Of a stretch of DNA of 9,895 nt, positions 3,229 to 9,895 are shown one piece after another. Source of the stretch: Escherichia coli (lineage in GTDB: Bacteria > Pseudomonadota > Gammaproteobacteria > Enterobacterales > Enterobacteriaceae). Position 1 is the stretch's first letter; each line of letters starts with the position of its first letter. The translations under genes were made by a program, and so were the position numbers. Under the pieces are notes generated by a model, which worked only from the letters and a program-made list of their open reading frames with translations, did no database searches and was not told where the DNA came from. Location: assembly GCF_003334355.1 (NCBI RefSeq), contig NZ_QOWP01000057.1. One strand, 5' to 3'.

Positions 3229-4209
3229 ATGAACGCAATAATATCGCCCGATTATTACTATGTTCTTACCGTTGCTGGTCAGTCTAATGCCATGGCGTAT
3301 GGCGAAGGACTACCATTACCGGACAAGGAAGATGCGCCTCATCCCAGAATTAAACAATTAGCGAGATTTGCGCATACACATCCCGGAGGCCCGTCATGTC
3401 ACTTTAACGACATTATTCCACTGACTCACTGCCCACACGATGTTCAGGATATGCAGGGTTATCACCATCCTCTGGCAACGAATCATCAAACACAGTACGG
3501 CACCGTTGGCCAGGCACTACATATAGCACGGAAATTACTGCCCTTTATTCCTGATAATGCAGGGGTTCTCATCGTTCCGTGTTGCCGTGGCGGATCGGCT
3601 TTTACCGCGGGCAGCGAAGGGACATATTCAGAACGGCACGGAGCCAGCCATGATGCTTGTCGTTGGGGAACGGATACTCCGCTATACCAGGATTTAGTCA
3701 GCAGAACGCGAGCCGCACTGGCAAAAAATCCGCAGAACAAATTCCTCGGCGTATGCTGGATGCAAGGCGAATTTGACTTAATGACCAGTGACTACGCGTC
3801 ACACCCTCAACACTTTAATCATATGGTTGACGCCTTTCGTAGGGATCTAAAACAATACCATTCTCAGCTTAATAAAATTACTGACGCGCCGTGGTTTTGC
3901 GGCGATACCACCTGGTACTGGAAAGAAAATTTCCCTCATGCGTATGAAGCTATTTATGGCAATTATCAAAATAATGTTCTAGCCAATATTATTTTCGTCG
4001 ACTTCCAGCAACAAGGTGCAAGAGGACTGACGAACGCGCCTGATGAAGATCCGGACGATTTAAGCACGGGATATTACGGTTCAGCGTACCGGTCACCGGA
4101 GAACTGGACGACGGCACTGCGAAGCAGTCATTTCAGCGCGGCAGCCCGTCGAGGGATTATTTCTGACAGGTTTGTAGAAGCAATTTTGCAGTTTTGGCGC
4201 GAAAGGTGA
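3229..4209 (+). CDS. nanS: 9-O-acetyl-N-acetylneuraminate esterase NanS, 326 aa
   Basis: ORF-track frame 3202-4209. Chosen start is the ATG at 3229 (MNAIISPDYYYVLTVAGQSNAMAYGEG...); the track start at 3202 is a TTG. Recognised as NanS (YjhS). Stop TGA 4207-4209. Confidence 0.9.
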   Translation: MNAIISPDYYYVLTVAGQSNAMAYGEGLPLPDKEDAPHPRIKQLARFAHTHPGGPSCHFNDIIPLTHCPHDVQDMQGYHHPLATNHQTQYGTVGQALHIARKLLPFIPDNAGVLIVPCCRGGSAFTAGSEGTYSERHGASHDACRWGTDTPLYQDLVSRTRAALAKNPQNKFLGVCWMQGEFDLMTSDYASHPQHFNHMVDAFRRDLKQYHSQLNKITDAPWFCGDTTWYWKENFPHAYEAIYGNYQNNVLANIIFVDFQQQGARGLTNAPDEDPDDLSTGYYGSAYRSPENWTTALRSSHFSAAARRGIISDRFVEAILQFWRER

Positions 4210-4219
4210 GCGTTCATTA

Positions 4220-4488
4220 ATTTGATTTATTCGCATCCATCAGCGCTTTTAACTCCTCCGGCGTAAACGGTGGTTTGCGTCGGTGCAACATCGCATGGCA
4301 ATTAGGGCACACAGGAAGTAAAAAAACATATGAGATCAAGGTAATATATCTTCGCTTGCAGGCTTGAACCGCAGAAAATTTGCGAGCATGATCGCAATTA
4401 TTTCACTGCCAGGGATATCAATGGCTTCCAGTAAATCGCTGACGAGCCTTTTTTTGCTCTCCAGCAAATCCGTAAGCAGCGTGACCCA
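4220..4488 (-). pseudogene. HNH endonuclease remnant (C-terminal CxxCH zinc-finger region), frameshifted, no start codon
   Basis: - strand frame with codons at 4402..4220 ends ...LISYVFLLPVCPNCHAMLHRRKPPFTPEELKALMDANKSN* (stop 4217-4219). An adjacent - strand frame (4488..4339) gives the protein-like VTLLTDLLESKKRLVSDLLEAIDIPGSEIIAIMLANFLRFKPASEDILP. The two segments are in different frames and both are bounded by stops upstream. Confidence 0.4.
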
Positions 4489-4857
4489 TTATTTCGCAAA
4501 CATGTATTACGCGCTTATAACTACCAGTGCGCAATATGTAGCTTTAATATTTGTTACGGCAACTCCACCGTCTCACTGGAAGCGACACATATAAAATGGA
4601 AACAACATGGTGGCCCTTGTGAAATTCCCAATGGCCTGGCGCTTTGCGCGATACATCATAAAGCCTTTGATAAAGGAACGATTGGCCTGGATGAAAATAT
4701 GCGGGTACTGGTATTGGATGCGGTAAACGGCGGAGAGATCATTGAGAGGTCATTCTGGGATTTTGACGGAAAAATTATTGCGTTGCCACAGGTGCGTAAA
4801 AATTACCCTTTTGAGGGGGTTGTAGAGTGGCATCGGAAAGAGTTTTTTAGGGGGTGA
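4435..4857 (+). pseudogene. HNH_2-type endonuclease remnant (N-terminally truncated; in-frame TAA at 4432-4434)
   Basis: + frame 4435-4857 translates to ...QQIRKQRDPLFRKHVLRAYNYQCAICSFNICYGNSTVSLEATHIKWKQHGGPCEIPNGLALCAIHHKAFDKGTIGLDENMRVLV...EFFRG*. This matches the recalled HNH_2 signature (FR..vL.aY..CAiC ... LEAaHI ... NGLaLC..HH.aFD.G). No plausible start codon or RBS; the upstream frame is closed by stops. Confidence 0.5.
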
Positions 4858-4860
4858 GGT

Positions 4861-5169
4861 AACCATTATATATCTTTCACCTAGAATTTTAAATGTAATA
4901 GATAAAGTATTTTCTGACACCGAAAGTATTATTTATGAGTACATAGCCATAAATCAATTTTAAAATCTCAATATAAAACACGTTTACAAATATTCTAGTC
5001 AGAGTAAATATATATTCATTATAAGAGAATCCAATTATTAACCAATCGACATTACAAATTAAAAAATAATTAGCATGTTGAACTGTACATTAATTTATAT
5101 ACATAGTAAATTTACATCTATTCATGATATAATTATCGTGATATCAATTCATTAATCAGGAAAATCATA
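4861..5169. other. Strongly AT-rich intergenic block (by eye well under 30% GC)
   Basis: Dense A/T runs and TA-rich words read directly from sequence, contrasting with the nanCMS genes. Typical of horizontally acquired DNA and promoter islands. Confidence 0.7.
5125..5133 (+). promoter_or_regulatory. Candidate extended -10 promoter element TGATATAAT upstream of the 5170 ORF
   Basis: TG-n-TATAAT at 5125-5133, about 37 nt upstream of ATG 5170. No good -35 at 17 bp spacing; the AT-rich context makes chance matches likely. Confidence 0.3.
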
Positions 5170-5472
5170 ATGGAATTATTAAATACTTATGATGATAAAG
5201 AAACAGCTGAAATATTTTTTGAAAGAATAGAAGGAGAGAAAAGATTAGCAAGTGAACGAGATGCTACGGAAACAGTCTATAACCTCTTCGGGCAACCAAC
5301 CTGGAAAAATTTATATCTTCTTGATATGTTTAACCTAAAAGAATTACAAGGGATTATAGAGTGTAGAAAAAATGGACAGTCTTTCGACCAGGAACGACAC
5401 CGGGAAATAATAAAAATGCTTGAATATGCAGCAAAATCGTTTGACTTAATTATTCCTGCACATTGGCGATAA
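5170..5472 (+). CDS. Hypothetical small protein (100 aa), function unknown
   Basis: ORF-track 5170-5472. AGGAAAA 5 nt upstream of the ATG; followed by a strong hairpin terminator. Sequence (MELLNTYDDKETAEIFFERIEGEKRLASERDATETVYNLFGQPTWKNLYLLD...) not recognised as any family I know. Confidence 0.5.
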   Translation: MELLNTYDDKETAEIFFERIEGEKRLASERDATETVYNLFGQPTWKNLYLLDMFNLKELQGIIECRKNGQSFDQERHREIIKMLEYAAKSFDLIIPAHWR

Positions 5473-5474
5473 TA

Positions 5475-5507
5475 TCTGCTCCATATCTCACAGAGATATG
5501 GAGCAGA
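5475..5507. terminator. Bidirectional intrinsic terminator between convergent genes
   Basis: 15-bp perfect stem (5475-5489 pairs with 5493-5507; TCTGCTCCATATCTC / GAGATATGGAGCAGA) with 3-nt loop ACA. Flanked by A/T-rich tracts on both sides, between the 5170-5472 ORF stop and the 5519 stop of the - strand gene. Confidence 0.7.
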
Positions 5508-5518
5508 ATCATATTTAT

Positions 5519-8500
5519 TTACTCGCTAACCATCTTACTGAATAATTTCTCCAGATACAATGAGCCAGTATCCTCAATAAAAAGCACATTTCTGGCTTCC
5601 AGATTCTCTTTTGAATCAGGTACGTTTACTAAGTCAACATAACAAGTTTCAGAAACAATAAATGCACTTAATGATAAGTTATCATCCGATAATTTATGTT
5701 CAAGATTCTTGATTTCTTTATATAATCCGAACTTTGGATCATCAAGATTAAGATTGCGGATGCCTTTTGGATCAATAAGACTTAACCATTGTTTACCACT
5801 TTTATCATCGACTAACCACAATAAGAAATCCGGATAAAAATTACCCGCAGTAGCAAAGCCCAGGCCTCTATTTTTAGAATCCGCATTTCTTAGCAGATAT
5901 AAACTTTTATCACCAATAATTTTCTGCCCTTTTGTCGAATCAACAAAAGACTGAAGATCATGGACAAAAGTAATCTCACTTGATGCACCCAGTGTTGCCG
6001 GTCGCATTTTTAGCGGTATGTTGGCATTTTTTTCAATCGAAAGAAGTGGATAATAGAGATGTTTATCAAAGGTAATAGCAACCATCCCGGATGCACTCCA
6101 GGATTTTGCTTTACCGATTTCGCCGTCGATGACCAATTGTTGTAATTGTTCCAGCCGACTGGCATATGCCAACCCATCATCAGTTTCTTCGATCTCGAAA
6201 TGGTACATTTTGATCATACCAGGATCATCTTCTTTCACCTGCGTGACTTCATAAAACTGACCTTCATAAGCATTTTTCAATGTGTTGTAAAAGCGATCAG
6301 TATAATCAGTCAGCAGACGAAGCATAATATCTTCCTGCTTAGCAATATCTGCATATTGCTTAATCTCAAGCTCTGAAGCTGGAATCAAAAGGGTATACCA
6401 ACTATTTCCGATCTTTGTCTTACCGGTACAAAAGTCGATCAAACGTTGTTTATCCACACGTAAATTTGACCAGCCGCGTTGTAGTTTATAATTCTGAATG
6501 GCGAGATAAAGCCGATCAAAATCAAACGCACTAATGATTTTATAATCTAACTTCGCTTCATTACGCACGTTAACCGGAGTATTGTCCCCTTTTCTGCTGG
6601 TATCAATCGACTCAAGTTTCGGGTATAGGTCCAGCTTAATATGCGGCTGCTTAATTTTCCCCTGAAAATCAGCAGGAACTTCATACAATTCGGGAAAATA
6701 GACACGTTTAAAGCCGAGTCTTTGATTATCTTTATAACCATCTTTAAGCTTAAGTGTTTTAAGCCTGGTTGCTGGCATATTTGGCCGAGTTTCAAAATTC
6801 AGCTCAAGGATCTCGTCACTTGGCGTAATCCCTTCATCTTCCAGGTATTGTTTAAAGGTTGCCATGTAATCGGCACGTACACCGAATACATTCAGTGTCT
6901 CTAATTTTTCCAGATGCAACCCTTTCGGACGCTCACCGGGTGTACTGCGTTTCAAAGAATAATTGCGACCTTTAAGGCGAACGCCACGACCAAATAACTG
7001 AATGATCTGTGAACCTTCTCCACGGCCCATATTGAGCAATCCCATCGTTGAGACGCGCCAACTGCTCCAGCCTTCAGTAAATTTTCGCGAGCCGATCAAA
7101 ATATGTAGTTGCGAGTCTTTGTCATTTAACGTATGAAAGAGTGACTTCGCAAAATCATCTCTCTGATAATCAAATGTCGTATCCTCTTCACACATTTTGT
7201 AAAGAGACGGTGCATCACCAATATTGATAAGACCAAACGGTTCGGCCTCACCAACCTGTAATGCCAGTTCACCTTTACTGCCTATTAAATTCAGAACTCG
7301 CAGTCTCTGACCTGAGTGAGTGGTGTTAAACAAACGAGAAAGAATATCTGCGTAGATATCTTCCGGGCCGTTCATTAGTGCGGTAAAGCGATTTTCAAAA
7401 ATGTTACGCTCTTTGGTATCAAGAATTCGCGCTTTATTTTCAATGAGATCTTTAATCCACGATTTTGCCTGCGATTCATGATTTAAAAACCATGCTAAAA
7501 AACGCAGTACTGCGTGAATGTCTGAATCTTCACCACTTACGGTGTTACCGACAAAAACCCATAGCGGTTTTTCGATATTAAATTCATTTAATTTTTCTTT
7601 ATTCTTATTGAATAAATATTGTTGCTGATAAAAGCTGAGCAAACACGCGGTAAAATACTCATACCGACGCTCATCTTTTTTATCCTCTTCAGGATTAAGG
7701 TTAAGAATCAGTGATTCTTTACCATAACCATCCTCATAGAAGAATTTATAGGAGTAATCGAACAGAATCGATTTCCCATAGACTTCTCGTGTCGCCTGAA
7801 TACGCGCATCACGTTGTTCTTCGCTGGTTAATGCTATTTGCGCTAACTGTTCTTCGCTCAGTTTACCTAAGGCAGTTGTTTCAAAAAGCAGCTTTGCTTT
7901 TTTCTTCTGAATTTCTGTTTCAACTGCCTCAACATTATTGCCACCGGCCACTGCCTGGCCAAAAGTTGCTGAATATTCAAACGCAAATCCGTCACGCGTT
8001 AATTTGTCACGACGGCGCATCCAGGCACCAGCAGCACTTCCTGTGCCTTTATGCCCTTCATCAATCAGGACCAGATTGTTGCCTTCAAATGCCTCAACGG
8101 CAACAGTTTTGTCACCCATTTCATCGGCAAGTTTATTGATATCAATAACTTCAATCGTGCCTTTAAATGGCGCGGATTTACTCTTATCGAATAACTGGTA
8201 TTGGGTAAATCCTGAGTTTTCCAGTTCATCTAAATGTTGCTTCGATAGGCGTTCATCCGGCGTAAGCAGGATGATTTTATCCGGGTAATGATGGCTATTA
8301 CCGTTCTGGAAATAATGTAAATATTGCAAAATATTGACATGTAATAGCAGTGTCTTACCAGAACCAGTAGCGTTCCAGTATGCCAGTTTATTCAAATCAT
8401 CCAGAACGTATGATTTGAACTGATTAGCCCGGTCTTTTGCTGTTTTATCATTTTCAGCATTGTATGCTGCCAGCTCGTTATTTAGCCCATCGAGTAATTG

Positions 8501-8899
8501 CTGTTTACGGTTGAAGTACCAGTCCAGGTAGATCTCGGTAAACAGAAGCGACAAGTACTGAAAATATTTCATGTTCAGCACTGTGTCTTCTTTACGATTA
8601 CGGTGCTCGGTTATCTGCTGCCAGTGCTGCACGATATTGAGATCGTAACGACGCAGTTCATCGAGATCGATAAGATCGACCTCGAATAAATAGTTACTCA
8701 GCTCATGGAAGAATAAGCTTTGGCCATCTTCATGGATGCCTTCAAAGCGATCCTCGCCTAACCGATTCTTCAAACCTTGCAATGTGCCATCTTTAAAAAA
8801 ATGGAACATAAAGCGGTTTAAAACCAACTGCTTATGAAAGCTCAGCTTGCTGTTAGTCTCTTTTTTAACTGCTTTACCGGTGGTCGGTTTTTTAGCCAT
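5519..8899 (-). CDS. SF2 helicase with C-terminal PD-(D/E)xK nuclease motif; Type III restriction Res-like subunit (1126 aa)
   Basis: Intact ORF. Strong RBS GGAGGAGG 7 nt upstream of the ATG at 8899. Walker A ATGSGKT (aa 177-183; 8351-8371), motif II LIDEGH (aa 278-283; 8051-8062), motif VI QLFGRGVR (aa 634-641; 6977-7000), and C-terminal YPDFLLWLV...LIDPK (aa 1022-1045; 5765-5833) fitting PD-x(n)-(D/E)xK. Helicase-then-nuclease order matches Type III Res. Confidence 0.8.
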   Translation of the reverse strand: MAKKPTTGKAVKKETNSKLSFHKQLVLNRFMFHFFKDGTLQGLKNRLGEDRFEGIHEDGQSLFFHELSNYLFEVDLIDLDELRRYDLNIVQHWQQITEHRNRKEDTVLNMKYFQYLSLLFTEIYLDWYFNRKQQLLDGLNNELAAYNAENDKTAKDRANQFKSYVLDDLNKLAYWNATGSGKTLLLHVNILQYLHYFQNGNSHHYPDKIILLTPDERLSKQHLDELENSGFTQYQLFDKSKSAPFKGTIEVIDINKLADEMGDKTVAVEAFEGNNLVLIDEGHKGTGSAAGAWMRRRDKLTRDGFAFEYSATFGQAVAGGNNVEAVETEIQKKKAKLLFETTALGKLSEEQLAQIALTSEEQRDARIQATREVYGKSILFDYSYKFFYEDGYGKESLILNLNPEEDKKDERRYEYFTACLLSFYQQQYLFNKNKEKLNEFNIEKPLWVFVGNTVSGEDSDIHAVLRFLAWFLNHESQAKSWIKDLIENKARILDTKERNIFENRFTALMNGPEDIYADILSRLFNTTHSGQRLRVLNLIGSKGELALQVGEAEPFGLINIGDAPSLYKMCEEDTTFDYQRDDFAKSLFHTLNDKDSQLHILIGSRKFTEGWSSWRVSTMGLLNMGRGEGSQIIQLFGRGVRLKGRNYSLKRSTPGERPKGLHLEKLETLNVFGVRADYMATFKQYLEDEGITPSDEILELNFETRPNMPATRLKTLKLKDGYKDNQRLGFKRVYFPELYEVPADFQGKIKQPHIKLDLYPKLESIDTSRKGDNTPVNVRNEAKLDYKIISAFDFDRLYLAIQNYKLQRGWSNLRVDKQRLIDFCTGKTKIGNSWYTLLIPASELEIKQYADIAKQEDIMLRLLTDYTDRFYNTLKNAYEGQFYEVTQVKEDDPGMIKMYHFEIEETDDGLAYASRLEQLQQLVIDGEIGKAKSWSASGMVAITFDKHLYYPLLSIEKNANIPLKMRPATLGASSEITFVHDLQSFVDSTKGQKIIGDKSLYLLRNADSKNRGLGFATAGNFYPDFLLWLVDDKSGKQWLSLIDPKGIRNLNLDDPKFGLYKEIKNLEHKLSDDNLSLSAFIVSETCYVDLVNVPDSKENLEARNVLFIEDTGSLYLEKLFSKMVSE

Positions 8900-8901
8900 T
8901 C

Positions 8902-9873
8902 TTAAACCTCCTCCGCAAACATCAGGTTCAAGAATTCAGGTTCGATCTGGCGGATTTTCAGGCTACGAACAATCTCGCCGTCTTCTTCATCAACGGTAAA
9001 GGCGGTAGGTAAGTTATGATCGCCATTGATATAGATAACGTCGAACGTATTTTCTTTTGCATATAAATCGAATCTGTTGGCATATTTATTCAATTCTTCA
9101 TAGCCGATCTTGTCGCAATCGCGCCACAGAATAAGGGTACGCTCGCCAGTTGGTAGCGTTCCTTCAACACGCACATAGCCACGTTCGATATTGGATTCGA
9201 TGGATTTCACATGTAAGCCAATGAGATAGTTGAAAGTTTCAACTAAATCGATGTTCTTACGCTCAGTAGCACCTGCGGAATCCGTTGTAACATCCATTTC
9301 GTAGTTAAATGGTTTTTTGAAATTATCAGTATTGAGTAGTGAGCCTTTGCTTTCTGTTTCAAGCATATAGTTAAGAACATAATCCTCTCGAATTTCTTTA
9401 AGATCGTCGAAAAGATCCTTTGTTGTTTCAGTACGTTTCAGTGCTATATTGTTAAGAGTATCCTCAAAACTCTCAATTTTAATATATTTTATTAATGTCT
9501 GCTCAACTGGATTACAGCTTAGTGCTTTTCCATACTTCCAGTCAGTTGTAAAAATAGCTTTTTTTACTCTAGGCAAGGTAACAGAATAAAAATATTCACC
9601 TTGTTCGACCAAGCTAAATTTTCGAAAACCATTATCATCCCTATTCATATCTACCACTGCATGCCCTGTAGTACCAGAGCCAGCAAAATAGTCTAAGAAA
9701 TGAGCATACTTCGAATTACTAAGCGACTCTAAACATTCCTTAACCGCATAAATACTTTTTGGAAAAGAAAAATTAATCTGAGTCACGTTAAACAAACTAT
9801 TTAATAGTTCCGAACCATTGAACCGCCCCGGGTTTCCTGGAGAGTGTTTTATCTGTGAACTCAGGCTGCCAGA
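8902..9873 (-). CDS. Type III Mod-like N6/N4 DNA methyltransferase, C-terminal portion (AdoMet motif I plus C-terminal domain); reading frame interrupted upstream
   Basis: Open frame 9873..8902 contains FSFPKS...LDYFAGSGTTGHAV (motif I at 9667-9693) followed by RKFSLVEQGEYF, the pattern seen in beta-class and Type III Mod methyltransferases. The stop TAA overlaps the res RBS with only a 2-nt gap to the res ATG. In-frame stop at 9874-9876; a different frame is open 9800-9895. The catalytic DPPY-type motif is not in the window. Confidence 0.65.
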   Translation of the reverse strand, partial: SGSLSSQIKHSPGNPGRFNGSELLNSLFNVTQINFSFPKSIYAVKECLESLSNSKYAHFLDYFAGSGTTGHAVVDMNRDDNGFRKFSLVEQGEYFYSVTLPRVKKAIFTTDWKYGKALSCNPVEQTLIKYIKIESFEDTLNNIALKRTETTKDLFDDLKEIREDYVLNYMLETESKGSLLNTDNFKKPFNYEMDVTTDSAGATERKNIDLVETFNYLIGLHVKSIESNIERGYVRVEGTLPTGERTLILWRDCDKIGYEELNKYANRFDLYAKENTFDVIYINGDHNLPTAFTVDEEDGEIVRSLKIRQIEPEFLNLMFAEEV

Positions 9874-9895
9874 TCATCGTTTCCGATGGAAGCAT

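Follow-up and report, generated by a model that had tools for sequence, protein, structure and literature searches.

What is a small, nameless gene doing between a set of pseudogene fragments and the last gene of a restriction-modification (RM) operon? The question is raised by a 9,895-nt stretch of Escherichia coli DNA (contig NZ_QOWP01000057.1 of assembly GCF_003334355.1; hereafter 'the window'), whose plus strand encodes at 5170-5472 a protein of 100 amino acids (ATG at 5170, TAA at 5470-5472; WP_000421876.1, annotated as hypothetical) that we call T. A first-pass annotation of the sequence alone had recognised the same open reading frame (ORF), called it an orphan, tied it to res/mod homologues, and named regulator, immunity factor and anti-defence remnant among its possible roles. 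We find that T represents a previously undescribed and unnamed family of stand-alone proteins of about 100 residues, narrow but highly regular in its occurrence, and that it is tightly and specifically associated with modification-based defence operons of many types, at their effector end.

The ORF could, in principle, be spurious or a functionless decaying remnant, given its AT-rich setting beside pseudogene fragments, the approximately 175 E. coli genomes that hold only a truncated T, and the pseudogenes present at about one in ten species-level loci. We give this view practically no credence, because it is refuted by conservation between genera, by the ratio of nonsynonymous to synonymous substitution (dN/dS) and by a confident predicted fold. 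A search of 5.8 billion proteins recovered 113 homologues, nearly all of 100 residues and 50-68% identical, from Aeromonas, Vibrio, Shewanella, Pseudoalteromonas, Salmonella, Marinomonas and other genera; a scan of one genome per species located 77 loci, nearly all in Gammaproteobacteria, with many in Pseudomonas and one in a Burkholderiales metagenome-assembled genome (MAG). Both length and sequence are kept between genera at 45-68% identity, the median dN/dS is 0.11 (73 unsaturated pairs), and differences fall mainly at third codon positions (3365, against 1954 and 1566). As judged from these substitution patterns, T is a real protein gene under purifying selection; the synonymous bias for which the first-pass annotation would have looked in related loci is present, and with 113 homologues, 77 loci and a very regular context the gene is no orphan.

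Across genera, the N-terminal 58 residues (MKLLNTY...G.KRLASERD.T..IYNLFG.P.W.NF) are 71% identical, while the C-terminal helices vary except for a retained tail, IP.HW; the invariant positions are S28, R30, Y37, L39, F40, W45, L51, L56, P96 and W99. The AlphaFold (AF2) model, with a predicted local distance difference test score (pLDDT) of 96.5, has a strand at 2-7, a helix at 10-19, a hairpin at 24-41 and three helices, i.e., a beta-alpha-beta-beta N-terminal domain plus helices. Modelling of a linked tandem (30-residue Gly-Ser linker) gave a predicted template-modelling score (pTM) of 0.54 and a lowered pLDDT, which speaks mildly against an obligate dimer. E. coli T is small and, as had been stated, acidic, albeit mildly (isoelectric point (pI) 5.0, 19 acidic versus 14 basic residues), and the family has a median pI of 5.7 (range 5.0-8.0) and a median net charge of -2.

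The inability of the first-pass annotation to assign a family was borne out: Pfam, NCBIfam, PADLOC and PHROGs contained no match to T (the best being PHROG hits at E 0.17-0.31), and a profile search for remote homologues among 1.84 billion representatives returned 77 matches that were the narrow T family itself, its fragments or weak chance similarities. Sensitive searches therefore supplied homologues, as it had hoped, but no known family or fold. We dismissed a match of bulb-lectin repeats to the T profile as chance, and apparent N-terminal extensions or fusions (a 175-residue 'DNA-binding regulator' in the AlphaFold database (AFDB), and long ORF calls) are most likely spurious, produced by in-frame start codons further upstream. 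In the portions of the literature that our searches reached, WP_000421876.1 went unmentioned, and term searches did not find T described in PMC12839542 (BREX diversity), 10.1101/2024.01.29.577857 (embedded systems), PMC12629846 (Pseudomonas genomic island hotspots), PMC12707154 or PMC12255303 (RptR).

The context of T is far more informative than its sequence. ORFs were called in every locus fetched, and representatives of the clusters of neighbouring genes were annotated with PADLOC and Pfam. In 62 of 64 usable loci T adjoins a recognisable modification-based defence system. The two flanks of T provide an internal control: among loci with at least 8 kb on both sides, a DNA methyltransferase (MTase) homologue lies downstream of T in 35 of 42 and upstream in 6 of 42. 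Counting either side, 59 of the 64 loci have such a homologue, and three of the other five are BREX or Res operons cut by a contig end. Defence genes of other types occur near T only when embedded in, or added to, modification-based systems.

At least eight types of system, in at least four arrangements, are found beside T. They comprise the Type III-like Res-Mod-SNF2 operon present in E. coli (~12 species), Hma/DUF499 systems, often with embedded HEC-01 or Septu (~10), BREX type 3 (~11), BREX type 1 (6-7), a BrxHI-BrxD-PglZ-BrxC BREX, a UvrD helicase with a Type III MTase, an SNF2 protein with an HmaB-like MTase and HerA, a Pbe/Dnd-like cluster of PbeC/DndD with an MTase, and several unrelated Type II RM systems; the BREX operons are of types 1, 3 and 6-like. 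PADLOC identified their components as Res/Mod with a DrmD-like SNF2; HmaA, HmaB and HmaC; BrxA, PglZ, BrxHI, PglXI and BrxC; BrxL, PglZ and PglX; Type II restriction endonucleases (REases) and MTases; and PbeC/DndD. Plasmid copies of T face an XcyI-family REase with M.Pac25I, or the remnant of a BglII/BstYI REase, and even two distant homologues (~25-30% identity) adjoin an MmeI/Eco57I-type MTase and a helicase, in divergent orientation. The proposed link to res/mod homologues was thus too narrow. At only two T loci do large neighbours match no PADLOC model or MTase seed (L036:7163-11054 and L093:10720-14230, the latter with its T locus interrupted by IS66; loci carry our L numbers), and since the rule holds at the other T loci, these two are candidate new defence systems.

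The position of T within these cassettes is equally regular. T usually abuts the last gene of the operon, which is a nuclease or effector; the MTase gene occupies a more 5' position than this last gene in all operons examined. The next gene is convergent with T, i.e., tail-to-tail, in 53 of the 64 loci and co-directional in the other 11. The median convergent gap is about 29 nt (range -13 to 385 nt), and 41 of the 53 measure 0-60 nt; in 20 convergent loci the gap is at most 15 nt, and transcripts must therefore overlap there. The cassettes as a whole sit inside tRNA-integrating islands.

If T were a component of any one of these systems, its sequence should betray the system to which it belongs, and this idea was rejected because identity is independent of cargo and no PADLOC model matches T. 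Identity is 0.74 for T pairs of one genus and 0.59-0.61 for pairs of different genera, regardless of whether their cargoes are alike. Each half of T was also tested for co-variation with the type of cargo, and none emerged, host genus being tracked instead. T is, in other words, cargo-agnostic: its sequence follows the host genus, not the type of cargo. Near-identical copies of T adjoin different defence systems, and each cassette has its own T, such that one genome can contain two T paralogues (75-76% identity), each with its own cargo. Such pairs, each T beside a different large operon, occur in P. delhiensis RLD-1 (L055/L071) and P. fluvialis ASS-1 (L053/L077).

All-against-all blastn comparison of the T loci placed the breakpoints of homology between islands. 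When two loci share a backbone and differ in cargo, homology stops at the T stop codon (-22 to -1), as among the Pseudomonas loci L049 (BREX3), L051 (BREX1), L053 (Hma) and L059 (BREX3), or between L024 (BREX3) and L032 (Type III), which are 92.8% identical up to the stop. When two loci share cargo and differ in upstream DNA, homology starts at the T start codon (+1 to -8), as in the pairs L010/L029, L056/L072, L073/L088 and L023/L032. Because homology between islands breaks at the start or the stop codon of T, the gene serves as a crossover hinge for cargo swapping, with recombination at T DNA exchanging the backbones and cargoes of islands. T and cargo also invert as one block: the backbone that stands immediately before T at other loci (Pseudomonas L049, L072 and others) is shared by L079 and E. 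coli, where the unit has the opposite orientation to it.

These breakpoints are also what would be expected if T were simply a backbone gene of tRNA-integrating islands, with a role in their maintenance, excision or transfer and no connection to defence; T would then flank the cargo slot, and its conservation would make it a recombination anchor. This is the main alternative to an accessory function, and it would further account for the dependence of T on host genus rather than cargo, for its frequent position directly after a P4-type integrase (leuX-int-T in JX2, int-AlpA-T in Vibrio) or after RadC-CbeA, and for cargo that does without T. Nevertheless, we consider it rather unlikely. The cargo is nearly always modification-based (62 of 64), the upstream neighbours are diverse and unrelated, small plasmids carry T with a Type II RM system and without the integrase or RadC-CbeA genes of the island backbones, T and cargo invert as a unit relative to the same backbone, and distant homologues retain an MTase neighbourhood in a different setting. 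T is, moreover, acidic rather than basic, with no helix-turn-helix (HTH), Xis or AlpA signature in Pfam. CP4-type backbones are widespread in E. coli, whereas T occurs in just 376 of 5426 complete genomes, and T is therefore not a general CP4-type backbone gene.

Known hotspot flanks (those of P2/P4, integrative and conjugative elements and Pseudomonas genomic islands, PMC12629846, and of the leuX hotspot #37, PMC12707154) resemble T in being conserved genes that edge variable cargo, with homology that ends at the border and cargo that recombination replaces. They belong, however, to the backbone of one element and border all types of defence, whereas T is found with many backbones and on plasmids, borders essentially one class of cargo and, unlike those flanks, inverts together with it. 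Two narrower identities suggested by the islands were also rejected. An excisionase or AlpA factor is contradicted by the absence of a Pfam match, by the acidity of T and by a separate AlpA gene in the same islands. The CbeA/YeeU antitoxin gene precedes T in Aeromonas and Pseudomonas islands, but T as a CbtA toxin has no Pfam match and most T loci lack CbeA upstream.

How T is expressed bears on what it might do at the end of an operon. Upstream of the E. coli gene lies a perfect match to the extended -10 consensus TGnTATAAT, TGATATAAT at 5125-5133 on the plus strand, which is the predicted promoter of T; a simple sigma-70 scan passes over it for want of a good -35 element at suitable spacing. 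It is followed by a Shine-Dalgarno AGGA (5158-5161, plus strand) 8 nt before the ATG, and the first-pass annotation had identified both the ribosome-binding site and the possible extended -10 correctly. At a similar distance from the start codon (-35 to -44 from the ATG), 22 loci of the Pseudomonadaceae clade (20 Pseudomonas, one Stutzerimonas and the Burkholderiales MAG) have a -10-like element, GG[CT]ANAAT, which is retained even where the DNA upstream of T is otherwise unrelated. About 60 nt that include the promoter move together with T, and the gene that precedes T often has a terminator of its own in Pseudomonas and its close relatives. These signals indicate that T is very probably an independent transcription unit with its own promoter. 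The predicted promoter and transcription start in E. coli are overlain by a TGATAT direct repeat (5125 and 5141) and an 8-bp perfect palindrome, TGATATCA (5141-5148), which could possibly be an operator, with no equivalent motif common to the family.

On the other side of the gene, a perfect 15-bp hairpin with a 3-nt loop (5475-5507; -25.3 kcal/mol, z = -6.4) occupies the space between the convergent stop codons, beginning 3 nt past that of T and ending 11 nt before that of Res. None of 200 shuffles was as stable, and the hairpin is a likely terminator, more convincingly so on the plus strand, where AUCAUAUUUAUUUA follows. The shared terminator described by the first-pass annotation thus exists as a hairpin in the E. 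coli locus without being a feature of the family: strong hairpins (<= -15 kcal/mol) occur downstream of T in 36% of cases across the family versus 23% of control windows, with no clear enrichment, and are a trait of the E. coli locus and some others. Apart from this hairpin, no terminal repeats or att sites were found around the E. coli module of T and cargo, and a search of the window for a copy of the leuX 3' end, a tRNA or an Rfam family found none.

The arrangement of convergent genes suggests that T might act as a timer during establishment. Transcription from a constitutive T promoter would enter the operon from its 3' end and lower the distal effector (Res, REase, BrxL, PglZ or HmaC) relative to the promoter-proximal MTase, until accumulating T protein repressed its own promoter and freed restriction after the chromosome had been modified. 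Such a mechanism would be independent of cargo type, and it would suit the tail-to-tail orientation in 53 of 64 loci, the 20 convergent gaps of 15 nt or less that leave no room for a terminator, the placement of the MTase gene 5' of the last gene in all operons examined, and the fact that T travels with a promoter stretch of some 60 nt; a precedent exists in the reverse promoters of EcoRI and Eco29kI (PMC12707154). We nonetheless think it improbable, since the strong hairpin (-25 kcal/mol) intervenes in E. coli, L002 has a textbook bidirectional terminator, and 11 of 64 loci are co-directional. Nor was a conserved operator found upstream, though the putative reading head of the protein is invariant, and the tandem model (pTM 0.54) yielded no confident homodimer.

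The distribution of T and the manner in which it decays constrain its role further. Of the 376 E. coli copies, 188 are intact and accompanied by the Res gene, about 175 are truncated and 11 have diverged. The truncated copies end at an IS66 after about codon 41, with Res-Mod-SNF2 and the CP4-type backbone deleted, as in strain EJN001 (L099:8071-8238), and leave a 55-residue 'hypothetical protein', WP_000421877.1. Diverged T in strain JX2 (L098:12390-18611) stands directly after a P4-type integrase at tRNA-Leu (leuX), and is followed by an AAA ATPase (562 residues), a 407-residue protein (neither with a PADLOC match) and a convergent Type II-like MTase; this ATPase-MTase cluster is a candidate for an undescribed modification-based system.

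Beyond chromosomes, T is very rare, with 7 occurrences in 72,556 plasmids, 2 in 2.9 million IMG/VR contigs and none in 50,697 phage records. T pseudogenes make up about one in ten species-level loci, and three of them (L089:10001-10320, with a frameshift; L064:10001-10310, with a stop at codon 68; L040:10001-10310, in which W45 has become a stop) lie beside BREX type 3 or SNF2-MTase operons that keep full-length ORFs. Because T pseudogenes coexist with intact operons, T is not an antidote and is not needed to tolerate an established system, which makes the suggested immunity factor unlikely; an anti-defence remnant is likewise unlikely in view of purifying selection, absence from all 50,697 phage records and only mild acidity.

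Tesfazgi Mebrhatu et al. (2011) reportedly described foreign MTases, Type III Mod among them, as provoking Mrr. T could be imagined as a host-compatibility factor that neutralises a conserved host response to new modification or to transient self-restriction (e.g., Type IV Mrr or break processing), whereby the host would tolerate an incoming cassette with an MTase. Such a factor would be associated with modification as such rather than with one effector, would track the host genus, and could disappear once the system was resident; the 71% identity of the N-terminal 58 residues across genera would fit a conserved target, foreign MTases including Type III Mod do elicit Mrr (PMC12707154), and an SBD-HNH Type IV-like enzyme or its remnants lie on the other side of T in E. 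coli and Salmonella. Against this, one T per cassette, even twice per genome, is unexpected for a factor that acts on the host, T is absent from phages, including MTase carriers that face the same problem, and it shows no likeness to known inhibitors and is not a DNA mimic (median net charge -2). As a self-sufficient explanation we would give host compatibility little chance, much as we would the timer.

What remains common to these observations is that T accompanies modification itself, whatever enzymes carry it out. We put at roughly even the prospect that T is a generic accessory of mobile modification-based cassettes, acting on something that all of them have in common. As such, T would bind no specific defence protein, and its target would be either a host factor that is itself conserved or the 3' end of the cassette, at the level of DNA or of transcripts. 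It would act most likely when a cassette arrives in a new, unmodified host, either restraining the distal toxic effector or making the host tolerate the new modification, and past establishment it would be dispensable and free to decay. The control of RM systems during establishment has precedents, among them promoters, antisense or convergent, that tip the balance towards the MTase and away from the REase (PMC12707154). More tentatively, and with a good deal of doubt, we suggest that T may be the first cargo-agnostic establishment or compatibility factor common to mechanistically unrelated modification-based systems (Type II and III RM, BREX, Hma/DUF499), i.e., a protein of new fold at the effector end that works through convergent-transcription timing or by disarming a host response, and whose DNA doubles as the hinge.

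Several points weigh against this proposal. We infer an establishment or compatibility role from genomic context, while the predicted fold matches nothing: a structure search with the T model against PDB, AFDB and BFVD had no match. The figure of 62 in 64 overstates the number of independent events, because loci are related by descent and recombination, and modification-based systems already make up about 40% of the cargo of the leuX hotspot (summed from a table in PMC12707154). An operator upstream of T was sought across the family, and only the lineage-specific -10-like element emerged. About one-third of convergent loci have a strong intergenic hairpin, and these, together with the 11 of 64 loci that are co-directional, mean that a purely transcriptional mechanism is not general. 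Finally, in some loci at least, a WYL-domain (BrxR-like) gene stands at the promoter end, and T is not the principal regulator of the operon there.

Such WYL genes head several T-associated operons, both Type III with SNF2 and BREX (L050:10663-11571, L054:15187-16107, L023:19724-20254 and L088:19827-20279), which places BrxR at the promoter end and T at the opposite, distal end of these cassettes. T itself resembles BrxR and CapW in being cargo-agnostic and in lying near a variety of defence systems and islands. However, BrxR is a protein of about 300 residues with a winged HTH-WYL-WCX architecture and lies at the promoter end, whereas T has 100 residues, matches neither WYL nor HTH and lies at the distal end (some T loci encode a separate WYL protein of 303 residues); and BrxR and CapW occur beside many types of defence, whereas T is restricted to modification-based systems.

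The closest functional precedents for a small protein encoded beside RM genes are the C (controller) proteins of about 80-100 residues, which delay or limit the nuclease on entry into a new cell (PMC12707154). C proteins are, however, Xre-type HTH dimers that bind C-boxes, whereas T has no HTH match in Pfam and no structural match, and a conserved palindromic operator resembling the C-box was sought across the T family and not found. C genes lie upstream of the REase gene and are co-transcribed with it, whereas T is mostly convergent at the 3' end; and T, unlike C proteins, also accompanies BREX, Hma and Type III-like systems. Another small, conserved, RM-associated gammaproteobacterial protein with no close PDB homologue is RptR (PDB 9R2Z), an all-helical dimer of 79 residues that represses the promoter upstream of Type I RM/DarTG islands via TAGCTA repeats (PMC12255303); T matches it in neither sequence nor fold, differs from it in position and, among the loci seen, is not associated with Type I systems.

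The reverse promoters of EcoRI and Eco29kI, whose antisense transcription against the REase has been proposed to favour the MTase and delay restriction (PMC12707154), resemble the T promoter in pointing into the effector end of the operon. They lie inside the REase gene and specify no protein, whereas T is a protein gene outside the operon, separated from it in E. coli by the hairpin. As for the anti-restriction proteins ArdA, Ocr and KlcA/ArdB, they share with T a small size, acidity and an origin in mobile elements, but ArdA and Ocr are very acidic DNA mimics, whereas T is only mildly acidic, has no Pfam match, is rare on plasmids and absent from phages, and is encoded not in a leading region but next to the RM system of its own element. 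An ArdB-type gene is also present in the E. coli island that carries T.

The E. coli locus itself lies at the far end of the hypervariable leuX-anchored region, known as E. coli defence hotspot #37 (PMC12707154). Positions 4200-5700 are 100% identical to E. coli FORC_031 and many other strains, and the locus is chromosomal. Gene order begins with nanC-nanM-nanS, continues with HNH and ScoMcrA-like SBD-HNH fragments, both annotated as pseudogenes, and then passes through about 310 nt of very AT-rich DNA to T on the plus strand, the hairpin, and the Res-like and Mod genes on the minus strand. The G+C content of the window reaches its minimum, 0.217, at 4951-5250, in keeping with the earlier description of this part as the most AT-rich.

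As the first-pass annotation had seen, T converges on a helicase-nuclease gene of a defence-like module. This gene, the last of the operon, is Res (5519-8899, minus strand), a Type III-like DEAD/DEAH helicase-nuclease of 1126 residues (PADLOC REase_III, E = 0; RefSeq annotation); next to it is Mod (8902-9895, minus strand), a Type III-like MTase of 1034 residues, of which only the 3' part lies in the window (PADLOC MTase_III, 3.7e-151; E = 0 for the full-length protein). Outside the window follow a DrmD-like SNF2 helicase gene (DrmD model PDLC02619, 9e-199), which leads the Res-Mod operon, and a CP4-type island backbone. The system lies at 5519-9895 of the window and at L009:1225-10624. With Mod and Res in one operon, the PADLOC matches predict a Type III RM system by definition. 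It is an atypical one, in view of the sizes of Mod and Res and the DrmD-like SNF2 at its head, and relatives of the operon hold extra genes between Mod and SNF2 (e.g., L032, L044, L019 and L038).

The remnants on the other side of T lie within 4128-4857 and consist of an HNH endonuclease gene (minus strand, ~4217-4321) and the ScoMcrA-like SBD-HNH gene (plus strand, 4435-4857), annotated as a 'phosphorothioated DNA-binding restriction endonuclease'; both are pseudogenes in FORC_031. Salmonella L015 retains a full-length SBD-HNH gene (291 residues) on the same side of T, hence a Type IV-like enzyme once neighboured the RM cassette. At the start of the window, nanM called as its longest ORF begins with an ATG at 1950 and shares 89 nt (1950-2038) with the end of nanC; this overlap is an artefact of ORF calling, because the RefSeq start of nanM is about 108 nt further downstream.

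Two questions are at stake in these observations, namely, how BREX, Hma and Type III-like systems enter naive cells without killing them, and how they are swapped so rapidly between islands. A single companion of 100 residues, found with all of these types, offers a concrete and testable handle on both. T is also of practical use as a marker, since it reveals modification-based cassettes and their exact 3' border, including the uncharacterised clusters at L036 and L093 and in JX2. And if T should prove to be only the flank of a hotspot, it would still document a precise recombination hinge that is used across the Gammaproteobacteria.

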